64,000 nucleotides of DNA from NCBI GenBank assembly GCA_001662655.1, contig KV460215.1. One strand, 5' to 3'. Made by a program: the position numbers and the translations under genes. Below are positions 20,863-64,000 of this stretch, one piece after another (position 1 is the stretch's first letter; each line of letters begins with the position of its first letter). This stretch comes from Pseudogymnoascus verrucosus. Taxonomy: Eukaryota. The notes beneath the pieces were generated by a model. It did not search any database. It was not told the DNA's origin and saw only the letters and a program-made list of their open reading frames with translations.

Positions 20863-23800
20863 ATGTCCTCCAGTGTCGCCTCAGGCGCAACCCCCTCGCC
20901 CTCCATCGACCCGCGCCAGCTCGACGGCTCCTCGCCAGACTACCCTCACCATGCCCCGGCCGCGCCCCTAGACGCCGCATACCTCTCCTCCTACCAATAC
21001 CAGCACTACAGTAGCTCCTCGAGCCCCTCCGCTCTCACCCCAGGCAACCCCGTCTCCGAGAACAGCGGCTACAGCGAGTTCAGCGACTACGGCGCCGACG
21101 AGTTCTTCGGCGTCAACTTTGACGCAGACGGCCAAGATCTCATCATTGGCTCAGACTCCCAGGGACCGTCGCCGCCGCAGACGACAGGACTGGGATTCGA
21201 CCCGCTCCTGGATAACGAGGCCACGCCTGATACACCCCCAGCTGTGACCGCGCCGCTGATGACGCCCGACCCCACGAGGTCACGGAAATCATCGCCCAAC
21301 TCCAATCGACCACCCGCAGTGAAGACGTTTATCCCCCGCGTCTCTGCGCCAGAAGACGGGCTGAACAGCGCATCCTCGCCGTCCTCCTTCAACCTCTCCG
21401 TTAACACGGCGGAGCAACAGGCAACCCCTGATATGAGCGGCAACACGAGCCACACCAGCGCCGAGGGCGTCCCAAATAGCATGGGTGCCTTTGCTGGGCA
21501 CAGTCCCCGTGTGACCCTGACCACGTGGAACAGCACCGAGGAGCGCGAGCTCTCTACTGACCCGGAGGATCAGGGCACTACAGTCGGTGCTGCGAGCGAG
21601 CGGGGACTGCAGGGCTACTTCGCCCCGCGCGATGCGGAGCACTCGAGCGCCTACAACATCCAGATCTCCGTCGCGAAGAGTTCGAATGGGTCCTCGGTCG
21701 ACGACGATGAAGATGAAGGGGGCGCGCGCAGGGGCTTCGATCCGGTGCGCCGCAAGTCCTTCTCGGATGCCGAGATACCGAACTTCAAGGATAGAGCGCG
21801 CAGCGAGGAGATCGAGGCCAAGAGGCGCGAAGTAGAAGAGTGGCGGTCCCAGGCAGGCGACAGCTCGGATGAGCAGGACGATAGCCCGACGCGCCCGCCA
21901 CTTTCTGGCCTTTCGGCCCCAGCGCCTAATCGCGGGAGATCCCTGAGCACGGGCGCAGTGCCACATAGCCAGAACTCACCGCGTGGATTTTCGTCGTGGG
22001 CACCGGAGCCGCCGCATATCCAGACCTCGGCCCTAGACGCCGAGGCAGAGGAGGACAATATCAGGCCCGTGTCGCCGACGGCGAGTATCCGCGAGAACAG
22101 GTTACAGGATGGGCAGACCTACTTTAATAAGGGGGCGTCTAATATCACGGATGAGGATGTGATACTGATGCAGCAGTCGCGGCACTTTAGTGATGCGGCA
22201 ACTTTTCCGAATATCGTAAGCCCGTCGATTGAAGGGAAGGGCACTTCGGCGAAGGAGATGATGGAGAAGTGGAACGCAGCTGCGGACTCGTTCTCCATCA
22301 TCTCGCGCTCCGCGACGTGGGGCACGCGACGGCGTCGACTCAGTGCGCCGAGCGTCAAGGAGATCGAGGCCATCACGAGCGGAGGTTTACTGAAGCGGCT
22401 GTCCTTTGGCAAAGGGAACGAGAAGAAACCCGGTATCCTTAGCACGATAAACAACGCATTCGGGAACGTCGTACGGAAGAAGAGCGTGGGTGAGCCCGGG
22501 AAGCTGAAGCGCAACCGGAATATCGACGCTGTCGACCGTGGCCGCCCTCCGTCGTCGCCACTAGGCAAGAAGGAGAATAACACGACCAGTACGCTCGCGC
22601 CGCCTCGATCGCCTAGTGGCACCAGGGTACGGCCGCAGTCGCCGCGCCTGACTACGAGTTTTGGGAGGGAGTTGACGCCTGGGGATGGCGGCCATAGCCG
22701 GCGCGCGTCAGTAGGAAGCACGAACTCGGTTGGCGGCTTCTTCACTGGCGTGGGCAATGCCATCCGACGCAGTAGGAGTAAGAGTGAGCTCAGCACCGAG
22801 GCTGGGCTGACGGGTATAGCAGGCCAGTGGATGAAGATGGGCGGTCCGCCGGTGCCTACTCTCACCTCGCCACCTATTGATGCCGATGAGGAGTATGGGT
22901 TAATTGACGACCAGCCGATGCATGATGTGAGCGATATGGATTTGGATGCTGATGATGATGATGATGATGACCTTGCCGACGATGGCGACTTGCAATTTGA
23001 CCTTGATACCCCTATTGTAGCTACGATGGACGGCTTTCGCGACCATGTGCGCAAACTCAACCCGATGATGGAGCCAGGATACCTTGTGGACCGCCTCGCA
23101 CACCAGCAGATGGTGCGGTATAAGTGCCTGCTTGGATGGCGCATCAAGCACCAAGGCGCTATCAGCGACCGTGCCTGCAATGCTCAAGAATTCTGCCTGT
23201 CTATGGGCGGCGCGACCAAGTACTACGAGGCCAAGGCGAAGGGCCGCGCGGGAGCCAACAAGGCCCTACCTATCGACGGCGACGGGTCAGACTCGAACCC
23301 CGAGAATGCGCTCGGCGCGGAGAGCTTCCCTGACGGGGTGCCGAAACCGCCCGCCCTCTCGCTCCCGGCCGAGTTCGAGTGCCAGCTCTGCTTCAAGGTG
23401 AAGAAGTTCCTGAAGCCATCGGATTGGACGAAGCACGTCCACGAAGACGTGCAGCCCTTCACGTGCACATATCCCTCATGCCGCGAGCCTAAGTCGTTTA
23501 AGCGCAAGGCGGACTGGGTGAGGCACGAGAACGAGCGGCATCGACACCTGGAGTGGTGGACGTGCCAGATCGAAGACTGCAGCCACAAGTGCTACCGCAA
23601 AGACAACTTCCTGCAACATCTCGTGCGCGAGCACAAGCTCCCCGAGCCAAAGACCAAGTCCAAGGCTGCCATCCGGCGCGCTACCGGCGTCGAAGAGGAA
23701 GTCTGGGCGCGAGTCGCAGAGTGCCACCACGAGACCCTCGTGCGGCCCGTCGACGAACCGTGTAAATTCTGCGGCAAGGCGTTTGCGAGCTGGAAGAAAC

Positions 23801-24981
23801 TCACCGTGCATCTGGGGAAGCACATGGAGCAGCTATCCCTACCCGTGCTGCGCCTCGTCGACCAGAGAACCGTAGACGCCAACACTATCATCTCCCCCGT
23901 CGAGGCGCTGCCGGTGCGCAACCACCACCCTCTCACGCCTACGGGTCCGCAATCCGGTGGGCCGGGGGGGAATAACCTCTACCACGGCCAGGGCATCTCG
24001 CCGCCTTTCGCGCACTTCCCGCCTGGTATGGCTGGGTTCCCGCAGAACGGCGTGCGGGGGATTCCTGATTACGGCGGTGAGGGGATGTATCCCAACCCCC
24101 AGGCGCAGAATATGGCGTATGCCGGCGCCAATGGGGGAGGGTATGCATATGGCGATAACGCGGGGATGCAGGCACATCACCATATGCAGCAGCAGCATAT
24201 GCAGCAACAACAGCAACAGCAGGCTGACCTCCTCCGCTCAGCGACCACGTATAATGGCCTCACACCCCTTGAACACACGCCCCTAGTCGACCAATCCGGA
24301 TTCCCGTCGTATAGCCCACACTCCGTCACCCCAGGGGGTGGGTACGCGTACACCTCCGCATCGGATATCTCGCCCACTCCTGCTGCGTACCCGCCCGGGA
24401 CGGGGGGCCAGGGGTTTGGGTTCGTTCAGCAGCAGCAGCAGCATTTAACGCCTGAACCGTATATGCCTGCGGAGTATGGTGGGGGAGCGGGGATGGGTGA
24501 TAGTTTTGGCCTCGGTGTTGGTGTGACGGGGGGTGGGTACGGGGGGATGTCGCACCACGGCCTCCCCTTCTCTGCAGGGGGGCAGCAGATGAAGGTTGAG
24601 CAGACGAGCCCGTTTAGTGGTGCTTCTTCGTCGACGACGTCGCGCGGGTTTAATGGCGGGGGCGGTGGTGGATTAGGGGTTGAAGGGCTAGGCGTGGCGG
24701 GGATGGGGATGGTGAGGGATCGGAGCGGGAGTGGCGGGAGGCAGATGGCGCAGCAGGGGGGGTTGCAGTTGCAGATGCAGGGTTTGGTGCCAGGACAGCA
24801 AGGGGGACAGGGGGGGACGAGTCCGTATAGTGCGGGGAGTTCGGCGGGGGGGATGGGGCATCAGGGGGTCCAGGGGCAGGGACAGTTTGGGGGTGTGATG
24901 GGAGGACAGATGCAGGGCCAGCAGATGGGACAGTTGGGCCACCAGGGGGGGTATGCGGATGAGTATTATGGGGGGATGTAG
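20863..24981 (+). CDS. Large C2H2 zinc-finger transcription factor (1372 aa, intronless)
   Basis: Fingers read FECQLCFKVKKFLKPSDWTKHVHED, FTCTYPSCREPKSFKRKADWVRHENERH, WTCQIEDCSHKCYRKDNFLQHLVREH and CKFCGKAFASWKKLTVHLGKH. The N-terminus is S/P-rich and the C-terminus Q/G-rich. Confidence 0.92.
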   Translation: MSSSVASGATPSPSIDPRQLDGSSPDYPHHAPAAPLDAAYLSSYQYQHYSSSSSPSALTPGNPVSENSGYSEFSDYGADEFFGVNFDADGQDLIIGSDSQGPSPPQTTGLGFDPLLDNEATPDTPPAVTAPLMTPDPTRSRKSSPNSNRPPAVKTFIPRVSAPEDGLNSASSPSSFNLSVNTAEQQATPDMSGNTSHTSAEGVPNSMGAFAGHSPRVTLTTWNSTEERELSTDPEDQGTTVGAASERGLQGYFAPRDAEHSSAYNIQISVAKSSNGSSVDDDEDEGGARRGFDPVRRKSFSDAEIPNFKDRARSEEIEAKRREVEEWRSQAGDSSDEQDDSPTRPPLSGLSAPAPNRGRSLSTGAVPHSQNSPRGFSSWAPEPPHIQTSALDAEAEEDNIRPVSPTASIRENRLQDGQTYFNKGASNITDEDVILMQQSRHFSDAATFPNIVSPSIEGKGTSAKEMMEKWNAAADSFSIISRSATWGTRRRRLSAPSVKEIEAITSGGLLKRLSFGKGNEKKPGILSTINNAFGNVVRKKSVGEPGKLKRNRNIDAVDRGRPPSSPLGKKENNTTSTLAPPRSPSGTRVRPQSPRLTTSFGRELTPGDGGHSRRASVGSTNSVGGFFTGVGNAIRRSRSKSELSTEAGLTGIAGQWMKMGGPPVPTLTSPPIDADEEYGLIDDQPMHDVSDMDLDADDDDDDDLADDGDLQFDLDTPIVATMDGFRDHVRKLNPMMEPGYLVDRLAHQQMVRYKCLLGWRIKHQGAISDRACNAQEFCLSMGGATKYYEAKAKGRAGANKALPIDGDGSDSNPENALGAESFPDGVPKPPALSLPAEFECQLCFKVKKFLKPSDWTKHVHEDVQPFTCTYPSCREPKSFKRKADWVRHENERHRHLEWWTCQIEDCSHKCYRKDNFLQHLVREHKLPEPKTKSKAAIRRATGVEEEVWARVAECHHETLVRPVDEPCKFCGKAFASWKKLTVHLGKHMEQLSLPVLRLVDQRTVDANTIISPVEALPVRNHHPLTPTGPQSGGPGGNNLYHGQGISPPFAHFPPGMAGFPQNGVRGIPDYGGEGMYPNPQAQNMAYAGANGGGYAYGDNAGMQAHHHMQQQHMQQQQQQQADLLRSATTYNGLTPLEHTPLVDQSGFPSYSPHSVTPGGGYAYTSASDISPTPAAYPPGTGGQGFGFVQQQQQHLTPEPYMPAEYGGGAGMGDSFGLGVGVTGGGYGGMSHHGLPFSAGGQQMKVEQTSPFSGASSSTTSRGFNGGGGGGLGVEGLGVAGMGMVRDRSGSGGRQMAQQGGLQLQMQGLVPGQQGGQGGTSPYSAGSSAGGMGHQGVQGQGQFGGVMGGQMQGQQMGQLGHQGGYADEYYGGM

Positions 24982-37438: not shown

Positions 37439-39792
37439 TTAAGCCCGATACTCCCGTCGATTCCTGTGAGCCCTCCCTGGCCTCGCAGATGATGATATGA
37501 CAATTGGTTCGCGATTAGGTCCGAATCGGTTACTTAAAATCGGTGGATCCAAACGGTATTGGGCTCGCCGACGCGATCTCGAAGGTGCTTCGATCCTCCG
37601 AGGGGCATCCCTTTGGCCTTCGTAAAGTGGGCTTTCACGAGCTGTTGCGTCCCTCAAGTCAGATTGATGTTGTGCAAACATCATACTAATCCGGGGGTCA
37701 TACTCTTGTGCAGGTGATATTTGGGCAGGACCTCCTCGCCTACGCCGATTTCTTGGGGCTGGAGGAGCAGCAGGTTGCCCCAACCATATGTCGGGATGGG
37801 GCAAAAAATCGTCCGGAGCGTTGTGGCTTAATAGGTCAGGCTCTGGAACACTGCCCCTCATACTCGATTTCGCGTCCATTTCGATATCTCCGTCTTGATC
37901 AGTGGCCTCGTTCTCGTCGTCCGAGGCGTCGTATCCAGGAGCGGGCGAGGATGACCGTTCCTCGTCATGGTCTTCTGAATTTTCCTCGAGGCTTTGCTCC
38001 CTGGAACTTTGCGGTCCCGCGGAGATTCGCTCACGCTGCTTCTTTGCCCTCGATCCGCTACGTCTGTGAAACGGACATCTTTGTGCCTCTGGTTCGCCAG
38101 CGCGGCGAGATACCGCAGGTCCATCATTGCGGCTTGCTGCACCCTCATCATCGACGTCGTCCAATTCGTGGCGCCCAACTGTAGTTTCAGAGTCGCTGTT
38201 GTCCGAATGGTGGTCCACTCCAGAAAACGGTTCACCTTCGTCGTTTTCGCTATCATCACCATGGTCCAAGGGACTGTAACCGCCATTCCTAGCAGAGCTA
38301 TCGGATTCGTGCTCGTCGCCTATGCCAGGGTGATTTGCTGCCTCTGGCTCCCCTTGACCATCTCCAGAATCTGCTGAAACTTCGGAGTCTGAGTCCACTA
38401 CAATTGGTCGATTGGGCCGCCTTCTCCTTCCCTGTTGGCGCGGTCTCGACGACACCACTTCCTCTTCTTCCTCTTCCTCTTCTTCGTCCGAGTCGTCACT
38501 GTCGCTGTCGCTGTCTATAATTTGAGGCCTTGACCTGCGTCCAACTGCAGGAGAGCTGTCATCTGGCTCAATGAAGTCCATCATTGATGATGTTGTCTCG
38601 TCTCCGTCGCTTTCTTCTTCCTCGCTCTCGTCTGAATGCTCGCCTCTTCCGCGAGACTCTCGGGCTTCCAAATGCACGGGGTGAAGAAATTGATGATAAT
38701 GAGGGTGGTGATGGTGGTGGTGGTGGTGGTGACCTGGGTGATCTTCAAGGAGCTGGCGGACATCTTCAACTTGGACGGCCCCATCGAATGGATTGAACCA
38801 ACCCATCCCATCTCGAGGGTCGAAGCCATGGAAGAAGTCATCATCATCCATATCATCTTCAGCCTCCTGTGCATCTTCATCTTCATCCTCTTCATCATCC
38901 AAGTCGAACTCCATTTCTTCTAAGTCGCTGAAATCGTCTCGTATAGCCTCGTCCTCTCCCTCAAAGTCCACGCCGCAGTTTTCGCACAACGGACCCCCTG
39001 TAAATTCATGCCCACAGTGAGAGCAAACGTGCATACGGTCCGCTTCGTCGTAACGTATATTACCCAGCCGGGCAGTGCTGAAACAGCCCTTGAATAACCC
39101 TTCGTCGGAAATCCTGTCGGTCTCAACTGCCTGGTTTTCTTCCTTTCGCCTTTTGACGTGCTGTTCCGCACTTTCATCGGCTGGCATAAGCTCAACGCGA
39201 TTCACGAATATCTCCGCCAGTTGCTTGATCTATAGCAGATTGTTAGAAATATGCTAGACTTGAGAATTATATAACACATACCACGAATGCCGGAGCAGGC
39301 ATTGCCTTAACTGCACTTCGGCAATCTGGGCATGACTTGGACCGTCTATTTGGCAAAAACCAGTTGCACAGACACTAGGGAAGTTAGTTTAACGCATTCC
39401 ACGGAACCTATCCCAGCAACTTTGATATGAACTGGTCGTATTGAGAAGACATACACTATAACAATATGTATGCCCACATGCGAGCATCCACGGTTCGTAG
39501 AGAAGCTGGTCACAAATGGTGCAAGTGACGAGCGATTTTATATTGTCAAGGTCGGCCTTGAAGATATCTGCGAGCTATTAGGTGATATACGTTAATATAA
39601 ACACGTACACATATAGGTCGGGGGCAAAAGAGAGAGTCTCACCTCCATACTTGGTGCTATCTCCGTTGCGAACTTCGCTATCGCAACTGTTGACGTGCCT
39701 GCTGTGTCGACTGATTCTTGGACAACTAAGCTTCTTTCGGGAGTATCCAGTGAAATTACGCTCTCCCTACGGGAGGTCCTTGAGGGCGCCAT
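37439..39792 (-). CDS. RING-finger E3 ubiquitin ligase, Psh1-like
   Basis: The spliced C3HC4 RING reads TCTICDQLLYEPWMLACGHTYCYS|CLCNWF...SCPDCRS. A second zinc ribbon CSHCGHE...LCENCG and long acidic tracts follow, which is the Psh1 architecture. The ATG is at 39792. Confidence 0.82.
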
Positions 39793-46884: not shown

Positions 46885-47117
46885 AATAATTTTAGATAGA
46901 ATTATATACCCATTTATGTAGCGCGGGACCCTTTATCACCTCATTACTATAAATGTCACGTGTTTTGAGGTTCGAATGAGTAAACTTCAATCAGAGTCAT
47001 AGAATCGCCTCATCCAGGTCAAAAATGCTCTGATTGCCTCCAAATGCGCATAAATGATCAGCCAGCGTCTAATATCGTTGACCTGGTCTTGCCGCCTCTG
47101 TTTCAGCCCTCAAACTA

Positions 47118-48346
47118 TGATCCTCTCCCCACGCCTGTATCTCGGAATCTTCGCTCCGGCATTTTGCCCAAGAGCTACGGTGCCAGCCTTGTCGCACCCT
47201 TTCACAACCCATAACTATTATTCGCCCATTATGCCCCATCACCGACTCCATCACCGATCTTTCCAGGTAGTCCTCGATTTCGATGGCACAATAACTACAG
47301 AGGATACCATCGAAGCCCTCGCCCAGTCTGCCATTGCCCTCCAGAATCCATCCCTACCACATTCTCAACTTAGCCAAACTCCAGCAGCCGAAGCATGGAA
47401 CAACTGTAAATCTCAGTACTTGGCTGACCTCTCGGCACACTATGAGAAGGAAAACCAAGAGCCCAGTGATGGCGGTGTAGTTACGGGACTCGGTGGGCTG
47501 GAGAGGGAACAAGGCTCCTTAGACGCACTGAGAGATGTCGAATGGGCTAGCGTGAAAAGAGTGGGACAATCTGGTATTTTTAAAGGACTTTCAAAGGAGT
47601 CTTTGCGGGAGAAGGGAAGGGCAGCAACAGCAGGTGACCCTCAGGATGGGAATGATTTGGCGGTAGTTGTAAGGGAAGGCTTCCCTGAATTTGTTACATG
47701 GATCGGGCAAATCGGGGGTCAATGGGGGATTGTGAGTGTGAACTGGAGTCGGATGTGGGTGCGAGGGGTATTAGATGTGGCTTTGGAAGAGAGATGGGTT
47801 CCGAGTCAAATCGATCTTTGCAATCTCACAACGAACGATATTAACCCTTTGACGGGCATGATTCTAGGTTGGCGGTTAGATAGGGTGTGTTATGATCTCT
47901 TGGAGACAACGATCAGTACTGATGACCACCAGTTGTCCGCTAAACGCACCCACCTCCTTACAACGGCTGACAAGCTCCTCGCCCAACATAAGATGATGTT
48001 CTACGGCTTCGACATTGGGGTCAGTTCCCCGGAGCCTCTCACAATATACATTGGCGATTCACCGACAGACTTGTCTCCCCTGCTTCATGCTGATATCGGA
48101 ATAATAATGAACTCTCCATCCTCCACTCCTGGAGCTCTCGGTGCTTTAATCGATAAATGCGGATATAGGGTTTTACCGGTGTCTGAATACGAGGAGTTGT
48201 ATCGTAAAGGGGAAGATGAAAAGGTGGCCATTTTGTTGAGTGTAAATAATTTCACAGAGATTATTGATAGTGGCATGCTACAAGACGAGGGGTGGGATCC
48301 AACGGCGGCAAAGAAGGCCTGGAAGAAAGCAGAATCGGAGAGTTGA
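47118..48346 (+). CDS. HAD-superfamily hydrolase (DFDGT type; Cto1 / thiamine-phosphate-phosphatase-like)
   Basis: Motif I is VLDFDGTITTEDT, motif II IVSVNWS, motif III TTADK and motif IV YIGDSPTDL..LLHADIGI. There is a probable in-frame intron at 47885-47932. The start is uncertain (47054, 47118 or 47231). Confidence 0.8.
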
Positions 48347-51815: not shown

Positions 51816-52051
51816 AGGCATATAGACATATTAGTCACATTATAATAAATTCTTCTTAAATAGGAAATATAAATGAGTGATTGGATCTAGAGCCTTCTTT
51901 CCTCGGTAGCACCTCCGCTACTTCTTCGATATGCAGCTACAGGGAGAGACTCTAACGCCAGTGTAGCCTATTTAGCCACATATTTCAATTGTACATATGA
52001 GTTTCAAAATACTCATTTTATTTCAATGATGCCCCACAATCCTTACACACT

Positions 52052-52823
52052 TTAAGCAACATAAGTCGTCCGCTTCTTGTTGAACGCCCTTTGATCCTTG
52101 AGCCATTGCCTGTACCCAGCCACACTCGAGATCTTCTCTCCGTAGTAATCAGGCACCGGGTTCGCCATTGACGACGCCGAAGGGTCGACTCTGAACTTCT
52201 TGACGCGCCTATAAAACTCTACCTCTTTCTGTCGACAAATTAGCTTCCATTCCCCGATAGCCACCAATTCAAATGGTACTTACCGCCGCCATATCCGGTA
52301 TATACTTCCGGTTCATCGTATTGAAGATCCCCGTCCCAACAATAGGTCCAAGGAGCCACCCGACGCCTCCGCAGCTGAATGTGATCAAACCTAGCGTAAT
52401 GAAGGGATCCAACGGCACCTGTCCAACGAGGCTATCCATATCCGAGACAGCTAGAGCCTGTGCGCCAGCCAGCATACTACCGAAACTTGTTCCCACGGAT
52501 GAGCCAAGCTGTAGGCGCCTCCTTGTCTTGCGGAGCTTAAAGAACGCATTCCAGGTAAGCCGGTCTGCCGAGGAAGAGGGAGGTTGTGCTGTCGAAGCTG
52601 TGTTGTCCGTGGACGCAGTGGTCGATGCGTATCTAACGATCTGAGAAGTTGATTGCGAAGGAGATTTCTTGGATGTGAGGAGTCGCGGTCGGCTGGTTTG
52701 TGGGTATTGCGACTGGCTCTTTGACGGAATGGTCGTGTGATATGAGTTGGTAGCCGTGAGCGATGGCTGGAACCGGCAGTTCACAGCTGCTGTGCGCAGG
52801 CACAATTCGGTCCGGGCAAGCAT
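52052..52823 (-). CDS. PAM17: Mitochondrial import motor subunit Pam17
   Basis: A basic/Ser/Thr presequence is followed by LTWNAFFKLRKTRRR, LDPF, GWLLGP and FYRRVKKFRVDPS..SMANPVPDYYGEKISSVAGYRQWLKDQRAF. Intron 52229-52283. Confidence 0.95.
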
Positions 52824-53102
52824 CTTTGTAGGTTTAGACGTTGAGGCCGTAGAGAAAGGGTTGTGTTAGGGATGTTGTTGACGTCGTCGTTCGAAGCTTG
52901 TTGTAGCTTGGTGAACTTCCAAACTCGCCAGACGCATCGGGTGTTCGGCATTACTGTTAATCCGGTTACCGTGAATTGCCTCCACGGACAGACGGCATTC
53001 GAGGATTCATACTGGTAATTAAAACTGACATAATTTATTTCTTTATCCCCATGTCTAAATAGCTGTATCGTTAATTGTAGCTCTAAGTGGCTAAGAGCCT
53101 TC

Positions 53103-53486
53103 TTTTAATTTGTAGTTGCTGTAAACACCATATTTGTGTATAGTAATTAAGCGTCTCTATTTTAATCGCAGCGCAGTTTAGATAAACATCATATTTAGGG
53201 ACAGCGATTAAGAATCTATGCTTTAACTACAGATTGCTATAAACACTACATATATGTATAGTAATTAAGCACCTTACTTTTAATTGTAGTTTCTATGACT
53301 ATTATATTTATGTATAGTAATTAAGCGTCTATATTTTAATTTTAGTCGCTATAAACAATATATTTGTAAATAGTAATTAAATGTCTATATTTTAACCACA
53401 GTTGCTATATGAATTATACTTGTGTATAGAGATTGAGCGATTTAATTTTAATTATAGTTGCTGTAAATATTACTGTTATGCACAGC
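53103..53486. repeat. AT-rich tandem array of about seven degenerate 56-bp units, each with an internal inverted repeat
   Basis: Units start near 53103, 53160, 53221, 53278, 53334, 53390 and 53446. The approximate consensus is TTTTAA YYRYAG TYGCTRTAAAC AYYATATTT RTGTAYAGYRA TTAAGCGTCTATA. Confidence 0.85.
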
Positions 53487-53599
53487 CCGTCTCTTGACCT
53501 TTAGGTGGCACAAGTATTCTACTAAATTTCCGGTAGGATAGGATTTTATACTGAAATTGGCATATGAGAGACAGTAGCATACTACATAAGTCGTATAAA

Positions 53600-56500
53600 T
53601 CACTCTCCAAGAAGCACAACAGCCATATAAGCTGCCTGCGTCATAACCTCCTCCTGAGATATCCCCTGTGAGACGCCGATAATGGGGGTGCCTCCCACCT
53701 CCACAGTACAGGTATATTCCTGCCCCTCCTTTCCAAGCTTATACTCGACCTTCTGACCCCCAGACATTTCACCGAGCTTATTCTTCGGGTGAAGAATATC
53801 TATATCCTCATCCAGAATGCGGCGAAGATAGGCGATTAATCCAATATTCTCTGCGACTTTCTTGCATGCTGATAAATCGCCGCCTGCGTCTATGAGAACA
53901 GCGCCAATGATGCTTTCGACTATATCAGACAGGAACTTTGCTGGAGCTAGACTTGTTAACAGTACCCATGGATACTCATTTCCATGGGCAATAGCCGACG
54001 CAATGGCAGGCTGCAATTTACGGTATCTTTCCAAGCAGCTGCTCATTGCAGTGTTTATCTCCGGGTGTTGATGTCTCATTAACTGACATAGGTGCACAAG
54101 CTTTGAGCTGTGGACTTCTGTAAAGCCCGCCGAGTAGTGGTTTGGACTCAAAGCGACGTCCGTAACAACCTGCTCAAGCGATGAATCCATACAAAGATAG
54201 GCCAAAAAACCCGCATTAACCACAGCAGTCTTTGTCAGATGCATCCTGCCGTGTGATAACTCTGGTGCACTGTCGATCATGAAGGAAACGACTATCATAT
54301 CCAAAGTAGCGTCCCCAATGAATTCTAATCTCTGATACGAGCTTGTGTGCGAGTCGTGTTCGCAAGATGGGTGGGTTATAGCTTCTAGTAGGTAACCACG
54401 ATTCTTGAACTGATATCCAATTAAGTGCTCGACATCTGCAAGGTGACCGTTTGCGAGCGATGTGGGAGCAAAAACACTCTCTGCACCGAAACCTCTAGCA
54501 AATATATCTAGCGGGTCTGTTATCGGCATCTCAGGAAGGAAGCGGCTTATACAAGTTGCAGCTGCCTCGTACCCCCTATCAAGAAATGCACCGCCAATAA
54601 GCGCTTCCACGACGTCGGCGAGGACCTTGGTTGACAAGGTGCGCTTCTCTGGAGATGACGCAGCATCTAATATATCCCGAATATACGGTGGGGACCATTT
54701 GCGTGCTGTGAAGGTTTTCGTTACAATATAACGGTCCAGTCCTACAGCCAGGGCAGCACGCGAAAGGCGAGAGTTAGCAACAGCCTGGTCCTTGGCCCTA
54801 GACAGGTAGCCTTCAGGCCATGAGGGTTGAGTTGCGTATAAATTCACGCAGACGAGGTATTTTAAGACAGAATCCCCAATGAACTCCAAGCGTTGGTAGT
54901 TTGAGTTCTCGTTGGCTGAAGGGGCGTTTGTTGCCGTGATAACATAATCGAGGTTAAGAAACCCCTGATCTTCAAATACGGCGTTATACAAGTCCAACGC
55001 AAGGGCTTGCCTCCATAGTCGGTGCATAATCGAAGGAATGAGAAGAGAGCACTCCACATATTCCATGGGCAACTTGTCGACAGTGCTTGATTCTAAGGGC
55101 AGGAATAAAGCTGGCTTCTCAGAGCAATCTATCTCGTTTTCGGTATCTGACTTGCTTGCGAAACTGCGATGAAGGAAGTCTCGTCTTTTGGGTAAACGGG
55201 TGACTTTTATCGTCCCATCATCAGTAGTCTCTTTGAATATATGTGGGGCCGCATAACGTGCTTGGTCTCGGATGAGGCCATATGAAGCAGCGTTGGGATT
55301 CGCATTTAGTACCTCCGTGGCAGGCAAATTGCCAGCACTTTCTTCCAACCATGACCGAAGTAGCCCTTCACCAATATATGGTATAAAGAGCGCAAGAAAA
55401 TCATCACGTCCAGTTGGCATCCGGTTGAAATGGACCGCTTGAAAAATCGTTGATGTAACTTGCCTCATTATAGGAATGAATGGGGTGTCTGTGGGTGATA
55501 TTGGCGTAGTATCACTAATAGAAATCGAGTAGGTTATCTCATTATCCCAGTAAATTGTAAAGGTTTCGAGCGCAGGCAAGTCCTGAGGGAAAACGATGAC
55601 CAAATACAGCGTGGGACGGTCAGGCCTGGCGATGGATATAAGTTTCTTCTTCAGAGACTCTCCTGGCTCCATCCAACTTTTTGCAATACTTATCCAAGGA
55701 TTATAGATTTCGGAGACTTCCTCTACAGAAGCCCTGGTCTCTATATCAGGCGTAACCTCCTCATCCTTCCCAAGTAGCAGAGGTAGTAGGTTGTCATTAA
55801 TCAACCCCTTCTTATACAAGGCAACGTACGCCTGGAAAGCGGCATCTTTCTTGGCCATCCGTTCAGACTTCCATTCCCAGCCAGAAGTTGCCGTCCGTAC
55901 TGATGAATCGACACAGTTTGGTAATGTCACATTGCCAGTTATCAAGCCGTAGAAACTCTCTTGGAAATAGAACTTCGGTTGGAGATCCACGTAGGGCTGC
56001 GGGGGTAGAGTTGCGCAGAAGTGATGGATGTGAGCAACGGCAGTTTCAGGGGTGAGGAGGGCCCTGAGGAATTAGAAGATGGTCATAGTGGGCACAGAGA
56101 CTGACTTACCCGGTTGACTTGATCTCGAATCTAGCATTGGAACGCCCTTCAACATGCTCTTCCGTATCTTCCAGCTGCTGCAGCTTCTGACGCTTCGAAG
56201 CATCTTTTTGATACTCTACCCTCATTTGAATCTCCATGTCTCCCCATTCTTGTGGACCCAAAGAACGGTCATCCGAAGGGACTAGGAGGACAAAAATAGA
56301 ACGCCTTTTTCTTGCCCTTCCCCTTCGTTGGATGAACGACTTGAGATTGGGCGGTTTATTGAAGCATATAACTATGTTACAAGCTGATATGTCAATCCCC
56401 TCCTCAAGAACACTAGTCGCAATGATGAAGTTCTTGTCCTTCTTTCGAAAGCAATCGAGAGTATCCGTCTGCTCTAAAGGACTGAGCCAATCGCCAAGAG

Positions 56501-58105
56501 ATGACTTCCTACTAGAGAAGCTAGAAGTTCCAATAAATGTCCCGCACCTCAACATGCCCTTTGTCATGGGATGGACGGATAGGAGGTGGTGGAGGACGGC
56601 CACCGTTGCCCGTTGCTCAACGAATATGATCCCATGAAGATCACCGTCCCTGTAGCTTGTTAGGAATCGAATTAACTGTCGCACTTTTCGTGTTGTGTTC
56701 GTTTCATCCGGATGACCAGAGTTCAATGCCGAACTAGCACCGTGAACTTGAAGCAACAACTCGAGTACAGCATTGCTCCGTTTCCCATTATCAAAAAACG
56801 GGTCGCCGTTCCGTTTCGTTTCTGCGGCACTCCAGATATCTATAGATGTTTTAATATAGTAATCTGCAGCCCATTGGCCTAGCTCGTCGTATACATGATT
56901 TGCTTTCGTGCAAAATGATTTTAATTCGCGGAGGACCTTTGAGGTTTCCTTGATTAGATCAATGTCGTCTGAATCTCGGGACGTGCTCGAGTTCGTAGCA
57001 TCGGTATAGACAGCAATTAGGCTAACAAGCGCCAGAGAAGTATATTGCCCGTAGATTGATGGATTTGACAAGTAGGCAAGCCTCACGAATGTCGGCGGGT
57101 GGACATGTTCCAGCAGCTCCCCACGATGAACTCGTGGTGTTCGACATAGCGCATTGAGATCACGCTCGATAATTCTATTTAATTAGCGGCACGTAATACA
57201 GCAGGTTCGGAACACCCACTCTAGATCCGATGGTTTGGATCGAATAACTGGGCTTGCCGTTAAGCCGAGAATGTGTGGTACAGCATCTGGCCCTTTCAAC
57301 CCTAGGAGAGGATGATAGTAATTTTTCATTATCTTATTTGCGGGATGCTCGCCCGCGCAATGATGAGCTGTAATTGCTCAGCCTAAAGTCAAACTTTTCA
57401 CTTCATGACTCCAAGACGTACCTTCGTCAAACACTAAGAGCGCCAGCTCTTCTATTCGGACAAACCCGTGGCTGAGAGCATCTGACAGAACGCCATGAGT
57501 GGATACTACTATACGGACGTTTTCCAGCACTGCGTCCCATATCCTTTGCTCACTCCAACGGTCGACATTATCGGAACCCACGAGTAGGCGTGTCTGAACG
57601 TACGGGATGTTTGTGCGGAGAGTAGAGCATTGCTGCTCGCATAGTGCAACTGTCGGGGCAAGAAACCAGACACGCTAAATCCAAGAAGTTACATTACGAA
57701 TCCATTTGTTGATACATAAAATCTTATTTTATCTTACCTTCTGTGGCGGACATCTCTCTAGCTCGGCCTGTATGCGCATAACCGCACTATCACAGTCAGT
57801 ATATACTGTGCAAAGCTAGGCAACCCACGGGCCGCCAGCATCAGTTACACAGGGAGGGCAATTCACATATGAGTTTTTCCGCTGCCAGTATCCATCTATT
57901 TCTAAAGTCAGAATGATAAAATCGGCTGGGAATGAAGGAGCACTACCACTACAATTGTGTTGCGGGCCATGCTTGCTTCGAACATCTCTAGCTGGTACAG
58001 CCTAGACTGCTCATATGGTATCGCACTCGGTTTGGAAAGCTCCATCGCACCAGAGTTTGCTGGAGCATCTTGCAGGGCTACGCAGGTAGATTCTTGGGAA
58101 GTCAT
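53600..58105 (-). CDS. dcl2: Dicer-like protein, DCL2 type (DEAH helicase, Dicer dimerisation domain, RNase IIIa/b, dsRBD)
   Basis: About six introns. Helicase motifs are [45 protein letters not shown] and QRRGRAR. The dimerisation domain contains [10 protein letters not shown]. RNase IIIa reads [21 protein letters not shown] and RNase IIIb [21 protein letters not shown]. The C-terminal dsRBD starts HPKNKLG. The start is 58105 or 58045. Confidence 0.95.
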
Positions 58106-59024
58106 AATGCTCCATCCATTAGAGTGCAGCGTTTTATAGCAAGATGTTCTGGTTGAAGTGCGCAACGTGGCCGTCAATCCAGCACTGAAAACATCGGTGG
58201 TTTATCGCCAGCCTTGGAGCACATATATATGGTGCGTTCCAACCTCCGTATAATACTCTACAATACGCGGCGTGAGAGACTTGGGGTCCTCCTCAGGGTC
58301 AAAACCAACAAGGCAGGGCCCTCTATTAGCGCCGAGGAGTAGGCGCCAGTCTCGTCGGTTTCGGCTCAGTGCCTTAAACAAAGCCCTGTAAGGCTAATCA
58401 GCAAATGCCACGTTGGGGTCCTATACCAATCGAGAGAAGGCTCTGGCATTGTCGTAGCATTTGTGAATTTGATTGACGCGACGACGCTGCAAATAAAGTG
58501 ATATGTTGGTGCATGTAGCGACGTGCATTCCAGCCTTTCGTGAAGTGATTGGTGTTAGGTTAGGATGTAATGCCGCTGGCCGTCTTGACTCCGGTATGTG
58601 GGGCCTGATGATGGCTGTTTAGTCCCTCACTGGCCGATCAGCAACCAGCATGATGCTTGGTTTGTCTTCTTGCAACCACCACTCCATAGTCACAAACGAG
58701 GCTGGCTCTCAAAGTCACACGATTGCGCGTTGACACCAACAAGCATGGCCAGTCTATATCTGAACTCGCGTCCCCGCGTTTTCTACCTTTCACAGAATTA
58801 AGCCAGCAACGTGACACTGCTGCACAGGACTGACACTCAGGTTACTATCAGTGCGGCCTACAAGGTAAAGTTGCTAGCTTCAACATCAGGTAAGTAAGGA
58901 CCCATTCCTGAGTCTACAAATTCTACGACTGTGATGACGTACCAACCCATTACATAGACTCCCGAAGGGGCTTCAGGCCGCAGTTTCCAAAGAGAACCAT
59001 ACCCCGCACAAGTTCCGTTGAAAC
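58106..59024. promoter_or_regulatory. Divergent (possibly shared) Dicer-Argonaute promoter region, with a probable Argonaute 5'-UTR intron
   Basis: About 920 bp separate the two start codons. TATATAT is at 58224, and TTGGGGTCCT repeats at 58281 and 58413. CAG|GTAAGT at 58890 pairs with a TAG acceptor at 58957. Confidence 0.5.
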
Positions 59025-62000
59025 ATGTCTGTATTTCAACCTAGAGGCAGAGGAGTAGGAGGCCGAGGCGGGGGTGATCGTGGTAGAGGAGGAGGAGGCC
59101 GAGGCGGGGGTGATCGCGACAGAGGAGGAGGAGGTCGAGGTGGGGGTGATCGCGGCAGAGGTGGTGGTTTCCGAGGTGGTGGGAGAGGAGGCTTTCAGGC
59201 GGGGCCCGCTGAGGTGTTCGGGTGAGTCTGTTTCATTTCTATGTCATTTGCTGCTCTGTATTATACGTCTAACACAGTCTAACACTACCAGGGATGGAAA
59301 ATTTCCTCCCCCAAATCCAAATGTTACGAAGACGGAGGATAGCTACATGGCCCAGAAGCCAACACTCGCCGGTAGCATGGCTGGCATGTCTGTGACGGCT
59401 GATTTCCCAGCGAGGCCGGCTTATGGCACGAGGGGGAAGCCGGTTGTACTGTGGGCCAACTATTTTGAGCTTGCAGCGGCGAAGAACCTGATAATTTATC
59501 GGTACCACGTCGCCGTCTCACCTGAGGCAAAAGGAAGGAAGCTGAGGCGAGTCTTCGAACTGTTGCTCGAAGATCCTCGACTGAAAAATTCTGCCACCGA
59601 TTTCAAAGCCATCTTGGTTAGCCGGAAGAAGCTGCCCGACGTTGAACTAGAGGTTGCATATCGCTCCGAGTTCGAGGATGATGCTAAACCTGATGATAAA
59701 CCATACCGTGTCAAAATCCAACTTACTGGCGAGATGGACATCGATGCTCTCGTGAATCACCTCCGATCCGTCCAACCGGACCCGAATTTCCGCGCCGACA
59801 ATAGGATGCAGGTAATCCAGAGTTTAAATATTCTTCTGGGGCATTATGCGCAGTCAGATCCTCTCACCACCACCATCGCAAGCAACAAGCATTTTCTTTT
59901 TGGTGATGATAAGCCTGGGAATCGCTATCTGGTCGAACACAACCTTGGTAAAGGCCTCACTGCACTACGTGGCTACTTCCGTAGCGCTCGGCCGAGTACT
60001 GGCCGAATTCTAGTCAACGTCAACGTGAGCCACGCGGTGTTTTTCAAGCCAGGGCCTCTGATGGAGCTGATCAAGATCTTCGGCGCTGCATACGGCACCA
60101 ACCTTTTTCAACTAGAGAGATTTTTGAAGAAAGTTCGGGTGGAGACTAATCATCTGCCAGTAAAGAAGAACAAAGCTGGGAAAATAATCCCAAAGGTCAA
60201 GACCATCATTGCTCTCGCAAGTAAGAACGATGGCACAGGTTTACCTCACCCGCCAAGAGTCGGTAGATTCGGTGCCAATGCGACGGAAGTCGAGTTTTGG
60301 CTCGAATCAACTGATAAGAAGAAATCTGGGAATGGGAGGTATATAACTGTTTTTGACTTTTTCAAGACCCGTAGGTGACAATTCTCATATTCCATCCCCG
60401 CTTCAACTAACACAATCCAGACCACAAGAAACATTTAAACGACGCGTTCCCAATCATGAATGTTGGTACCAGAGCCAACCCGATGTACATGCCTGTCGAT
60501 TACTGCGTGGTTATACCTGGCCAGTCATCCATGAAAAAGCTCGACCCCGATCAGACCGCGGAGATGATTCGTTTTGCGTGCCGCAAACCGCATTTAAACG
60601 CCCAGTCTATTACTTCTGATGGGTTGGCAGTACTTGGGTTTGACGCCAAGTCCAAGTCTAATCTAGTAAGTGGCAATGTGGTTTTAATGTTACACAGTTG
60701 CTAATGCTCATTAGGGGTTGTTCGGAATCAATATGAACACGAACATGATCACAGTTCCTGGCCGAATTCTTCCACCACCGGTGGTAAAATACCAGGGCAA
60801 AAATACCGTAAGCCCAAAAGGCGGACAATGGAACATGATGGGCGTTAAATTCGCCCAGGGTTCGAAATTACCATCATGGACGTATATCTGGATTACGAGG
60901 AAGGGGAGGAGAGGCCTGATCAATGGGGAAGACCACATTTCTCGTATCATGGCTGAGTTTCAGGGTATGATGAACGCATCAGGCCTTGGGGCGCCGCCAC
61001 CTATGAAAGGCAAAGAGATCGTGATAGATGTTGGTCATAACGGACCAAGCAACGACGAGCTCATAGACAATATGTTCAAAATGGCGGCGACTGGGAAAGT
61101 CGGGTTGATGGTGGTTGTATTACCTGACCCCGACGCTGCTATGTACAATGCTGTCAAGTATGCTGGTGATATTAAGTATGGGATTCACACCGTCTGCGCC
61201 CTCGCTTCGAAGATCACGAAGGAGCAAAGGCGCGACCAGTATTTGGCCAACATAGCTCTAAAGGTCAACAGCAAGTTGCGTGGATCTAATCAGACGCTTG
61301 ATGCACAGAGACTCGGGATCATATCAGATGGAAAGACAATGGTGGTAGGAATCGACGTCACACATCCATCTCCGGGGTCCCTCTCGAGTGCTCCTAGTGT
61401 TGCCGCAATTGTGGCAAGCATAGACAGCACACTGAGCCAGTTCCCTTGTGAGCTTAGTGTTCAGGAGGGCCGGAAGGAGATGGTGACCGATTTGAGCGAG
61501 ATGATGAGGTCCCGACTTCAGCTGTGGAGGGACAGGAATAAGGCCTTACCTGAGAATATTCTCGTCTACAGAGACGGTGTTTCTGAGGGCCAATACCAAG
61601 TCCTGAAAGACGACGAGATCCCGTCTCTACGCAAAGCCTTTGACGGAATCTACACGGCCGATCAGAGGAAGAAGGGATTGCCAAAGCTTTCCGTTATTGT
61701 TGTTGGAAAGCGCCACCACACCAGGTTCTACGCCACGAAGCAAGACGAAGCTGATCGTTCTGGAAATCCGAACAACGGCACCGTCGTCGATCGTGGCGTA
61801 ACCAGCATGTGGAACTGGGATTTCTTCCTCCAGGCCCACACTTGTCTCCAGGGTACAGCGAAGCCAGCCCACTACTACGTGGTGCTGGACGAGATCTTCG
61901 GCAAGGGCAACTTGAAGACGCCTCATCCGTTCCCCAATGCCGCCGATACCCTTGAGGACCTGACGCACAACATGTGCTACCTCTTCACTCGCGCGACGAA

Positions 62001-62190
62001 GGCAGTCAGCATTTGCCCACCTGCATACTACGCCGACCTGGCCTGCGAGCGTGCCCGATGCTACCTACATAAGGAGTACGAGCCCTCGCATCCAGGGGGT
62101 TCGAGTGTAAGCGGCGGCGCGCAGCCGAGTACATTGGAATCCGATATTAAGGTCCATGATAGGCTCAAGGACTCGATGTTTTACATTTAA
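59025..62190 (+). CDS. qde-2: Argonaute, QDE-2-like (RGG N-terminus, N-L1-PAZ-L2-MID-PIWI)
   Basis: Exons 59025-59221, 59292-60370, 60421-60665 and 60715-62190. Motifs are RPAYGTRGKPVVLWANYF, GYFRSARP..LVNVN, GIDVTHPSP, QEGRKEMV, YRDGVSEGQY, KRHHTRF, GTAKPAHY, SICPPAYYADLAC and the C-terminal SMFYI. Confidence 0.96.
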
Positions 62191-62425
62191 TTTATATTTA
62201 TGACTTTGACGATGATTGATGATCTTTCTGGGAACTTTTGGGGGATTTCTTTGACTTGGAGTTTCGCGAATTGGAAATGGATGGAGGCTAGATTTAGCAG
62301 CGTTGGATTTTTGAATCTTACAACTTGGTATTGATTCTTTTAATGTGATGGTAATTGGTTTCCGTAAGAGTCTGTGATATCCGGTGCAATTGTGATATTA
62401 GAGCTTGAGCCATAACCCGCCCAAT

Positions 62426-63271
62426 TTACTCCAATCCCAAGATCTTCTCCGCAGCCTTCTTCAACGCAGCCATCGACTCCCTCCACAACGTCGGCCCAAC
62501 ACTAATCCTACAAACCCCAATCTCCTTCCACTCCGCAACCGTAACCTTCCCACCCCCACCACTCAACAGCACCGCTACCTTCCCATCAAGCTCCTTAACA
62601 AGCGTCTTCACATCATCCACCGTCACCGGTCCCCAAACAAAAAAGCTCGTCGCCCCGGCCTCCAAGTACGCCTTCCCCCTCCTCACCGCCTCCTTTAACA
62701 CGTCCTCGTGCCCCCACCCCTCAGGCAGTGGATCAAGCACGAAAAGATCCGTCCTGGCATTCACCACGAAATCAGGTAAGCCTTTCTCCTTCGCAACTTC
62801 AAACACGACTTTCAGCCTCTCTACCTGCTCCTCTACTGTCCTCAACCCTTCTAACCCTTTCCCATACCCCGTAGCGGGAATCCCATCCTCGATATTCGCC
62901 CCGACGACACCGAGATCAATAGCACCACCTATGCACTCACGTAGCTGGTAGCCATACCCATCCTGCAAATCCGCGCTGAGCGGGACGCCAGCAGCGCGCG
63001 CGATGGGAGAGATAAGGGACAGAGCTTCCAGGTTCAAAGGCAAAGTGAGGTCGGCGTCCGCGAGGCCGAGGGTCCCTGCTATGGCGAACGAACCCGTTGC
63101 GAGGGCGCGGACGGGGGTGGAGGTTGGGGTGTTGAGGGCGAGGACGGTGGTGGTGGAGGGGATGTCGTGGACGTTGCTGAGGACGAAGGGGGAGGAGGGT
63201 TGGTGGAGGGCTTTGAGTTTGAGGGCGTAGGCGTTGTCGATGGGGACGGGCTGGGGGGTTGGGGTTGGCAT
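62426..63271 (-). CDS. PEP mutase / isocitrate lyase superfamily enzyme (intronless)
   Basis: Motifs are LKALHQP..FVLSNVHD, ALATGS, PLSADLQDGYG, GVVGANIEDG, FVVNARTD, RGKAYLEAGATSFFVWG and GVCRISVGP. A TATATAA box lies on the minus strand near 63445. Confidence 0.88.
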   Translation of the reverse strand: MPTPTPQPVPIDNAYALKLKALHQPSSPFVLSNVHDIPSTTTVLALNTPTSTPVRALATGSFAIAGTLGLADADLTLPLNLEALSLISPIARAAGVPLSADLQDGYGYQLRECIGGAIDLGVVGANIEDGIPATGYGKGLEGLRTVEEQVERLKVVFEVAKEKGLPDFVVNARTDLFVLDPLPEGWGHEDVLKEAVRRGKAYLEAGATSFFVWGPVTVDDVKTLVKELDGKVAVLLSGGGGKVTVAEWKEIGVCRISVGPTLWRESMAALKKAAEKILGLE

Positions 63272-64000
63272 TGTGGTGGTGTTGGGTTGGGTGGAGAGGT
63301 TGAATGTGATAAATTGGGAGTCCTGTTAAACTTTCGGCTTGGGATAAAGTTTCAGTGGAGGATGATGTTATGGGTGCTTAGTTTGGATTTCAACTTAGAC
63401 TTTTTGAATACGTTTATAGAAACTATAAAGGAAGGGACCTTGTTATATATTACAGATCAGACAGGCGGGGTAGGCTGCGGGGTTCTGTGCGAACACCAAA
63501 GGATGACTCCGGTTCTCCGGTGTATATTTCAGGAAGGTGATTACTCACCAATCGTGAATACAGACACCAAAACGCGCCCTTACAGGATACCGAGATCTAG
63601 GCAGAAGTGTGCTACACAGAAAGTGGCGGGCATTAATCGAACCGTATTACTACCCTTATAAGGACAATAGTGCAGCTGTGGCGGTGGGTTGGTGAATGAC
63701 ATGTTTGGTATATGGTGGCGCATTTAATAATCTACTGCACTTAGATGAGCTTCATATATTTGCTTTGTAACCAGCGCTCTCTCTATCATCACACATGCTG
63801 TCAAGTAATAACCAAGAAATAGCTTTGGTAATAATAATTACACATTTGTAAGTTCGTTATAATGCCGTGTATGATAAGCAATACATCCCAAACCCGCGTA
63901 TACAAAAATGAACCGAACAGCCAGTCCAATGCAAATCGCTCGCTCATTCGCCTGGCTTAGAAATGAGATCCGGGATATCATCGACTGTGTTGTTTCCTTC

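Follow-up and report, generated by a model that had tools for sequence, protein, structure and literature searches.

Dicer and Argonaute must work jointly, and model ascomycetes induce both by virus or double-stranded RNA (dsRNA) although the two genes are unlinked. The closest described systems are DCL-2 and QDE-2 of Neurospora crassa, known from quelling, and the inducible antiviral DCL2 and AGL2 of Cryphonectria parasitica; in both species we take the Dicer and Argonaute genes to lie apart. The genes that we describe here from Pseudogymnoascus verrucosus belong to the same families and share the same domain layouts, but they differ from the Neurospora and Cryphonectria genes in being divergent neighbours and in being known here from sequence. 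C. parasitica DCL2 (P0347) is 33% identical to the linked Dicer over the RNase III half and falls in the same rooted DCL2 radiation, while the DCL2 line of the linked Dicer is separate from the line that holds the Sordariomycete and canonical Leotiomycete proteins.

A comparable arrangement has been described in a green alga. DCL1 and AGO1 of Chlamydomonas reinhardtii are reported to be adjacent and divergent, are kept in sister species and have been suggested to be functionally linked (PMC10226591, which credits Casas-Mollano et al. 2008 for the pair). The likeness to the locus studied here is a head-to-head Dicer and Argonaute; the Dicer and Argonaute subfamilies are unrelated, the hosts are an alga and a fungus, and co-regulation is only hypothetical in both, and the two pairs are surely independent in origin. 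Within fungi, PRA1 and ZRT1 are described as divergent neighbours of the same pathway that have long been conserved (PMC11185503). Shared regulation of PRA1 and ZRT1 is established in the cited literature, whereas for the Dicer-Argonaute pair we can only hypothesise it.

Results

A head-to-head Dicer and Argonaute pair

The window analysed here is a stretch of 64,000 nucleotides from contig KV460215.1 of the P. verrucosus assembly GCA_001662655.1. Gene models built with homologue guidance place a Dicer gene on the minus strand and an Argonaute gene on the plus strand, head-to-head and divergent, with 919 bp between the start codons (Table 1). The first-pass annotation had described two full-length, intact genes of DCL2 and QDE-2 type that diverge from starts about 0.9 kb apart, and this description held on every point: the frames are open, all nine introns (six in the Dicer, three in the Argonaute) are bounded by GT..AG, the catalytic motifs are in order, the interval is exactly the one it had given (58106-59024), and Pfam domains, motifs and named homologues are consistent with the two types.

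Table 1. Features of the Dicer-Argonaute locus and its flanks, in positions of the window.
Feature	Position	Strand	Details and evidence
Pam17 (mitochondrial import), beyond the Dicer 3' end	52269..52865	-	Pfam PF08566 at 52272-52865, E 2.2e-29
DCL2-type Dicer gene, 1388 aa	53600..58105	-	ATG 58105, stop 53600; 6 introns
Dicer exons	58105-57947, 57895-57867, 57786-57738, 57674-57422, 57367-57220, 57174-56110, 56063-53600 (stop included)	-
Dicer micro-exon, 29 nt, bearing Walker A	57895-57867	-
Spacer between start codons, 919 bp, holding both 5' untranslated regions	58106..59024	.	Direct read of sequence
QDE-2-type Argonaute gene, 998 aa	59025..62190	+	ATG 59025, stop 62190; 3 introns
Argonaute exons	59025-59221, 59292-60370, 60421-60665, 60715-62190 (stop included)	+
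36-bp tandem repeat, 3.2 copies, encoding the Arg-Gly-Gly-rich Argonaute N-terminus	59046..59161	+	Tandem Repeats Finder, translation
PEP-mutase/isocitrate-lyase-family enzyme, convergent with the Argonaute	62426..63325	-	Pfam PF13714 at 62429-63325, E 2.7e-60

On the minus-strand frames 53603-57674, Pfam recognised DEAD, ResIII, Helicase_C, Dicer_dimer (PF03368, E 8.8e-27) and two RNase III domains (PF00636, in two stretches). The spliced model carries GSGKT (Walker A) at residue 57 and DEAH at residue 162, that is, an N-terminal DExD/H helicase with its ATP-binding motifs as in fungal DCL2-type Dicers, and the dimerisation domain is followed by two RNase III domains with catalytic acidic residues: QRLEFIGD occurs twice, together with ADVVEALIG and SDIVESIIG, and both D..E pairs are intact. 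The model is 95% identical to homologue P0121. In homologue searches, for which the single large exon served as query, all the named proteins among the matches listed are called 'Dicer-like protein 2' or dcl2, including the Pseudogymnoascus destructans orthologue and C. parasitica DCL2.

For the Argonaute, Pfam found ArgoN, ArgoL1, ArgoL2, a weak ArgoMid and Piwi on the plus-strand frames 59059-62187, and PAZ was detected by Pfam on the 97%-identical homologue P0001, so that the protein has the N-L1-PAZ-L2-MID-PIWI architecture of a QDE-2-type Argonaute. The closest solved structure is the MID-PIWI part of Neurospora QDE-2 (PDB 2yhb, E 4.8e-95); aligned with it, the PIWI motifs DVTHP, RDGVSEGQ and PPAYYADL, which presumably house the catalytic tetrad, are the same in both proteins, and the slicer residues are present. 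Its matches bear the names QDE2 or 'RNA interference and gene silencing protein'. In a family tree built without SMS-2 sequences, several QDE-2-like lines can be distinguished, and Helotiales QDE2 is the sister group of the linked protein.

Contigs from public runs, spliced exactly at four of the nine predicted introns, indicate that both genes are transcribed and spliced, with uncovered parts being uninformative: the last Dicer intron (56064-56109) is skipped in a contig of run X1, and all three Argonaute introns (59222-59291, 60371-60420 with two odd letters, and 60666-60714) are skipped in contigs of runs X1 and X3. Run X1 contains spliced pieces of both the Dicer and the Argonaute, and a putative-RNA contig of run X2 starts at 58963, 62 nt upstream of the Argonaute ATG. 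Among public runs, none recorded as RNA was found to contain this stretch; the RNA nature of X1-X3 is our guess, and these contigs cannot rank expression. Finally, a DNA contig of 4530 bp from run X4, which shows 97 differences, spans 57306 to 61833 unbroken from one gene into the other, and thus a close relative shares the head-to-head layout.

The pair is adjacent in three genera

In P. verrucosus both genes lie on one contig. Consecutive locus tags or accessions further show that a Dicer and an Argonaute are neighbours in at least 12 Pseudogymnoascus assemblies (VKM F-4519, F-103, F-4246, F-4513, F-4515, F-4517, 24MN13, 05NY08, 23342-1-I1, P. australis and two of P. destructans), in Scytalidium lignicola (g6697/g6698) and in a Xylogone sp. 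(KAH8807748/KAH8807749). These cases establish gene order; orientation and spacer length are known for the studied locus and the X4 relative alone. Five more Pseudogymnoascus strains (VKM F-4281, 03VT05, F-4516, F-3557 and F-4514) have only one partner among the matches listed, which were the best 120 of 2724 for the Argonaute and the best 120 of 493 and best 120 of 159 for the Dicer. The first-pass annotation gave the two genes as not adjacent in the common model species. Adjacency is not the general rule: of the other ascomycete species, 16 occur in both match lists, and in 16 of 16 the two genes are on different contigs.

A metagenome scan with a Dicer alignment kept 80 loci, nearly all of them bacterial RNase III, with 10 fungal Dicers. 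One of these, L001, was the only fungal Dicer locus with enough upstream DNA, and no Argonaute was found in its 7.9 kb upstream; it encodes a canonical-type DCL2 with 40% identity and says little on the linked pair. In the literature, with subscription journals outside coverage, no report of fungal Dicer-Argonaute adjacency was found, and no paper was found that names the P. destructans locus tags of the pair.

Copy number and history of the two partners

We found no further DCL2-type protein from Pseudogymnoascus, Xylogone, Scytalidium or Leptodontidium among the best 120 of 493 and the best 120 of 159 Dicer matches, lists in which 20-odd canonical Leotiomycete DCL2s of similar score do appear. 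Likewise, no second QDE-2-type Argonaute of Pseudogymnoascus or Scytalidium was found among the best 120 of 2724 matches. In Xylogone a further QDE-2-like Argonaute (P0057) is encoded on a separate contig; in the tree it falls in another Argonaute line with a Lachnellula suecica paralogue. These genomes seem to have no DCL2/QDE-2-type pair besides the linked one, and a second canonical copy could exist below the best-120 lists, above all a DCL2 of at most 1441 aa.

In the trees, the linked Dicers and the linked Argonautes each form a fully supported clade, with Scytalidium and Xylogone at its base, and, in a tree rooted on Basidiomycota and built without DCL1 sequences, the linked Dicers fall within the Pezizomycotina DCL2 radiation. 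As for whether the two proteins are the canonical orthologues, a question raised in the first-pass annotation, the Argonaute groups with the ordinary Helotiales QDE-2 clade and the Dicer lies outside the canonical Leotiomycete DCL2s. The linked Argonautes and Helotiales QDE-2 form one clade (support 89 and 90.9), and the linked Dicers are sister to the DCL2s of Capronia, Eremomyces, Penicillium and Aspergillus (support 99, and 100 for the same split under a mixture model). In approximately unbiased (AU) tests under LG+G4, for groups named after the trees had been seen, grouping the linked Dicers with canonical Leotiomycete DCL2 was rejected (lnL 127 lower, AU p 1e-8), as was grouping the linked Argonautes with the sampled Eurotiales and Chaetothyriales Argonautes (lnL 167 lower, AU p 6e-5). 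The odd placement of the Dicer could result from long-branch attraction, given a stem of 0.34-0.47 and long sister rows. Taken at face value, the sequences suggest that the two partners differ in their deep history.

The spacer as a candidate control region

The divergent orientation and the short spacer are as expected for a bidirectional-promoter pair, and conservation across species extends to gene order in Pseudogymnoascus, Scytalidium and Xylogone, with the orientation known at this locus and in X4 only. We found no ORF of at least 80 aa wholly within the spacer, no Rfam family match on 52000-64000, and no internal repeats of the spacer above chance (for example, one exact 10-mer pair against about 0.4 expected); this repeat analysis found no shared promoter element. 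By eye only, a TATA-like run can be seen at about 58226-58233, and a putative 5'-UTR intron at 58889-57. The spacer is a candidate bidirectional control region and probably serves both genes. Coordinated induction of Dicer and Argonaute through it is a plausible hypothesis, to which we give slightly less than even weight.

Discussion

The linkage of this Dicer with this Argonaute is real and old, and probably functional. It could also be considered a neutral neighbourhood, in which a single rearrangement brought the genes together and the block was never broken, with separate promoters and with no regulatory or fitness effect. The absence of a shared promoter element from the spacer repeat analysis is compatible with this, and 919 bp is spacious enough for two separate promoters; moreover, dcl2 and agl2 of Cryphonectria, which we take to be unlinked, form an inducible pathway (PMC4182546), so joint induction needs no linkage. 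Given about 10,000 genes, we estimate the chance adjacency of one named gene pair at about 2 in 10,000 per genome, and across the many lineages of fungi a single coincidental case is possible, even to be expected. However, the pair is retained in three genera although between genera the Argonautes are 53% and the Dicers 46% identical, which argues against pure chance, and the separate contigs in all 16 other species of both lists weigh on the same side, as do the long stems under both linked clades, which would fit joint change. We therefore regard the neutral account as rather unlikely, and note that simple inherited synteny, flanking genes included, may apply across the genera.

Other accounts concern where the pair came from. 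The first-pass annotation suggested that these genes may be an additional, paralogous pair that was placed beside a housekeeping block, next to PAM17; the genome would then also keep its canonical dcl2 and qde-2. The position of the Dicer outside the canonical Leotiomycete DCL2 clade and the second Xylogone Argonaute (P0057) on another contig are compatible with such a reading, but the pair is common to the 12 Pseudogymnoascus assemblies, Scytalidium and Xylogone, and the linked Argonaute itself groups with the Helotiales QDE-2 clade. As no second Pseudogymnoascus DCL2 or QDE-2, nor a second DCL2 of the other linked genera, occurs among the matches listed, the extra pair is left unsupported and we hold it to be improbable. 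A cassette of two genes that moved as a unit into some Leotiomycetes, either through horizontal transfer or as a block duplicated long ago, would account for the patchy distribution, for the clustering of the Dicer with Eurotiomycete DCL2, and for members of the linked clades whose labels are foreign to the expected group (fungal sp. No. 11243, classified in Dothideomycetidae, and a Sarcosagium MAG) or point to Helotiales (Leptodontidium and Cadophora sp. DSE1049). Nevertheless, the partners have no common sister group, the Argonaute being rejected from the sampled Eurotiales and Chaetothyriales proteins by the AU test, MAG labels may be wrong, and the partner genes of the oddly labelled genomes are outside the matches listed, so that the adjacency counts exclude them; joint movement of both genes seems very improbable.

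We find it fairly probable that the locus holds an old, divergent DCL2/QDE-2 pair for the core siRNA pathway, the sole one in the genome, in which a Dicer of another line joined the resident Argonaute. From family membership, the Dicer would cut long dsRNA of viruses, transposons and aberrant transcripts into small duplexes, and the Argonaute would load one strand of each duplex and slice matching RNA. The adjacency would predate the split between Pseudogymnoascus, Scytalidium and Xylogone and would have been retained since. The Argonaute would have been inherited with the ordinary Leotiomycete QDE-2 line, and the Dicer would stem from a DCL2 line distinct from the one found in other Leotiomycetes. 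Most likely, therefore, the pair was assembled when the other-line Dicer arrived next to the resident Argonaute, with loss of the canonical DCL2. A stronger version, which we think unlikely, is that a foreign or long-separated DCL2 came to lie beside QDE-2, the canonical DCL2 was lost, and the two then co-adapted as a linked antiviral module with one control region; if true, fungi too would have a counterpart of the 'defence island', and one of its carriers would be the bat white-nose pathogen.

The adjacency leaves the known enzyme roles of Dicer and Argonaute unchanged. The separate descent of the Dicer is a hint that a core RNAi gene may have been replaced; such a replacement would bear on the turnover of the fungal RNAi toolkit. 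A lineage in which these genes are divergent neighbours offers a natural test between linkage for joint regulation and linkage for the joint inheritance of matched alleles. This lineage includes P. destructans; the bat white-nose pathogen reportedly harbours a persistent partitivirus (PMC7431587), and the pair is an obvious candidate for handling this resident virus.

A divergent Dicer-Argonaute pair with intact gene models

In the window, we found a DCL2-type Dicer and a QDE-2-type Argonaute, their exons mapped with full-length homologues, flanked by Pam17 at one side and by a PEP-mutase-family gene at the other (stop-to-stop frames and Pfam). These homologue-guided models agree with the first-pass annotation, which had described divergent genes starting about 0.9 kb apart, with canonical splice sites and intact catalytic motifs: 919 bp separate the start codons, and each of the nine introns is GT..AG. 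By the same frames and Pfam matches, the Dicer comprises DEAD/ResIII helicase, Helicase_C, Dicer dimerisation and two RNase III domains, and it retains GSGKT, DEAH, QRLEFIGD twice and both D..E pairs downstream; the Argonaute comprises ArgoN, L1, L2 and Piwi domains, with a weak MID match. Among solved structures, the MID-PIWI lobe of Neurospora QDE-2 (2yhb, E 4.8e-95) comes closest to the Argonaute, which does not differ from it at DVTHP, RDGVSEGQ and PPAYYADL. The closest homologues have complete layouts, namely DEAD-Helicase_C-Dicer_dimer-2xRNase III in P0121 (95% identical to the Dicer) and N-L1-PAZ-L2-Piwi in P0001 (97% identical to the Argonaute).

The Dicer GSGKT, the Walker A motif of the helicase, lies on a micro-exon flanked by introns of 51 and 80 nt, which a simple homology-guided splice search missed. 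Several public DCL2 models (P0138, P0219 and P0230) lack G[ST]GKT in their first 200 residues, perhaps through skipping of the same micro-exon. Argonaute orthologues within Pseudogymnoascus span 969-1035 aa, and the tandem repeat encoding the N-terminus is possibly the source of this variation. The other genes of the window are ordinary (prenyltransferase, ThiF/rhodanese, M20 peptidase, NatB subunit, kinases, amino-acid permease, GH47 and others), and a minisatellite separates the 3' end of the Dicer from the upstream region of Pam17.

Features of the Dicer-Argonaute locus and its surroundings, in window coordinates
Feature	Coordinates	Strand	Description
Dicer gene	ATG 58105 to stop 53600	minus	seven exons, 1388 aa
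Walker A micro-exon of Dicer	57895-57867	minus	29 nt
Spacer between start codons	58106-59024		919 bp
Argonaute gene	ATG 59025 to stop 62190	plus	four exons, 998 aa
Tandem repeat	59046-59161		36 bp, 3.2 copies; encodes Arg-Gly-Gly-rich (RGG) Argonaute N-terminus
AT-rich minisatellite	53103-53409 (wider ~53090-53470)		units ~56 bp, 5-6 copies, 68-80% matches, GC 0.29
Open frame	20800-24981	plus	1393 aa, no Pfam match at E 1e-5
Long frame	37442-39229		596 aa, no Pfam match
Long frame	47054-48343		430 aa, no Pfam match

Distribution of the linked pair

In P. verrucosus both genes lie on a single contig, and the nearest proteins, Argonaute V501_09952 (97%) and Dicer V501_09951 (95%) of Pseudogymnoascus sp. 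VKM F-4519, share one 15,009-bp contig. Consecutive locus tags or accession numbers place the two as neighbours in 12 Pseudogymnoascus assemblies (VKM F-4519, F-103, F-4246, F-4513, F-4515, F-4517, 24MN13, 05NY08, 23342-1-I1, P. australis and two of P. destructans), while five more strains have one partner only among the matches listed. They are also neighbours in Scytalidium lignicola (B7463_g6697 and g6698) and Xylogone sp. PMI_703 (KAH8807748.1 and KAH8807749.1). Adjacency in other genomes refers to gene order; orientation and spacer size were read in the window and in a 4530-bp contig of X4, a public DNA run. This contig spans 57306-61833 unbroken with 97 differences from the window, and therefore the head-to-head layout is present in at least one further strain. 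Dicer and Argonaute lie on separate contigs, of unequal sizes, in all 16 other ascomycete species with both proteins among the matches listed: two Geoglossum, Glutinoglossum, Lachnellula suecica, Tricladium, Paecilomyces variotii, Aspergillus germanicus, Claussenomyces, Cudoniella, Blastomyces percursus, Polytolypa, Lophium, Mytilinidion, Colletotrichum cereale, Conoideocrella and Peltula. Ophidiomyces was left out of this comparison, its two rows coming from different strains.

Ancestry of the two partners

Among the matches listed, identity to the window's Argonaute steps from 59-97% in close relatives to ~50% in general QDE-2, and for the Dicer from 44-95% to 36-41% in general DCL2. The 12 rows of linked Argonautes group in one clade with full support, in which Scytalidium/Xylogone branch at the base; its sister is ordinary Helotiales QDE-2 (support 89 under the mixture model, 90.9 under LG+G4). 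The linked Dicers likewise form a fully supported clade with Scytalidium/Xylogone basal, which also includes Dicers labelled Leptodontidium, Cadophora sp. DSE1049 and a Sarcosagium MAG. In the Basidiomycota-rooted Dicer tree, the 10 rows of canonical Leotiomycete DCL2 have Sordariomycete DCL2 as their sister group, matching species-tree expectation, and the linked Dicers are sister to Capronia/Eremomyces/Penicillium/Aspergillus DCL2 with support 99. Forcing linked and canonical Leotiomycete Dicers together was 127 log-likelihood units worse (AU p 1e-8), and joining the linked Argonautes to those sampled from Eurotiales and Chaetothyriales was also rejected (167 units, p 6e-5), in AU tests run under LG+G4 on groups named once the trees were seen.

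These differing sister groups, together with both rejected placements, thus indicate from protein phylogeny that the partners have different deep histories, which speaks against the arrival of Dicer and Argonaute as one cassette. Long branches mark both the stem of the linked Dicers and their sister rows, and the Dicer placement may therefore reflect long-branch attraction. The first-pass annotation had also considered an extra paralogous pair inserted near Pam17. No transposon adjoins the pair in the window's gene content and there is no sign of insertion; in the trees the Argonaute falls in with ordinary Helotiales QDE-2, and it is the Dicer that stands apart from canonical Leotiomycete DCL2. 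No second DCL2- or QDE-2-type protein of Pseudogymnoascus, Scytalidium or Leptodontidium was found among the best 120 of 2724, of 493 and of 159 matches, and no second DCL2-type Dicer of Xylogone among the best 120 of 493 and of 159. Canonical DCL2s of Leotiomycetes (more than 20) and numerous QDE-2s of Helotiales do occur in the same lists at similar scores. A further QDE-2-like Argonaute of Xylogone, P0057, is encoded on a separate contig and belongs to a different line in common with a Lachnellula paralogue. With moderate confidence, we take the linked pair to be the sole DCL2/QDE-2-type pair of Pseudogymnoascus and its Dicer to have replaced the canonical one, a conclusion drawn from best-120 lists below which a lower-scoring copy could lie.

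Two proteins sit inside otherwise Leotiomycete linked clades: the Argonaute P0011, of fungal sp. No. 11243, a record classified in Dothideomycetidae, and the Dicer P0138, of a MAG labelled Sarcosagium campestre. Their position suggests transfer, contamination or mislabelling. More broadly, several lines of Pezizomycotina QDE-2-like Argonautes are out of step with classes, e.g. Talaromyces with Cordyceps, and Geoglossum, Lachnellula suecica and Xylogone have two copies each, pointing to old duplications and differential loss.

Transcripts, the spacer and proposed roles

No public run recorded as RNA matches the stretch. Three runs of one study, X1-X3, guessed to be RNA, gave short contigs 90-99% like the window, in which four of the nine introns are exactly spliced out: Dicer 56064-56109 (X1) and Argonaute 59222-59291 (X3), 60666-60714 (X3) and 60371-60420 (X1, with two odd letters). 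These contigs confirm the four introns and show that a close relative transcribes and splices both genes, and they carry no information on expression levels or start sites; spliced pieces of both genes occur in run X1. One X2 contig begins 62 nt upstream of the Argonaute ATG. The two core promoters and the two 5' untranslated regions have to lie within the spacer, where we found no RNA family match, no ORF of at least 80 aa lying wholly inside and no repeats above chance. A more divergent X4 contig (record 26, placed on 57306-58707) matches the Dicer 5' exons at ~85%, and its matches in the spacer are limited to two short islands (~58304-58334 and ~58688-58707), which may hint at promoter blocks under conservation or may be short matches due to chance.

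Judging by family membership, the Dicer would cut long double-stranded RNA and the Argonaute would load and slice. This proposed division of work is like that of Neurospora quelling and of the Cryphonectria DCL2/AGL2 pathway, described as inducible and antiviral (PMC4182546). Shared control of both genes through the spacer is a plausible candidate for what the linkage does; it could equally serve to hold matched alleles together, or serve nothing.

The genes are already annotated in relatives, e.g. as 'Dicer-like protein 2' in P. destructans. In the full-text literature, with subscription journals outside its scope, we found neither a description of Dicer-Argonaute adjacency in fungi nor the P. 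destructans genes of the pair by name. The same layout is reported for Chlamydomonas DCL1/AGO1, head-to-head, kept in two sister species and said to hint at a functional link (PMC10226591, citing Casas-Mollano 2008). The pair is thus a fungal instance of an arrangement already in print for Chlamydomonas, and its one mildly surprising feature is the apparently separate ancestry of the Dicer.
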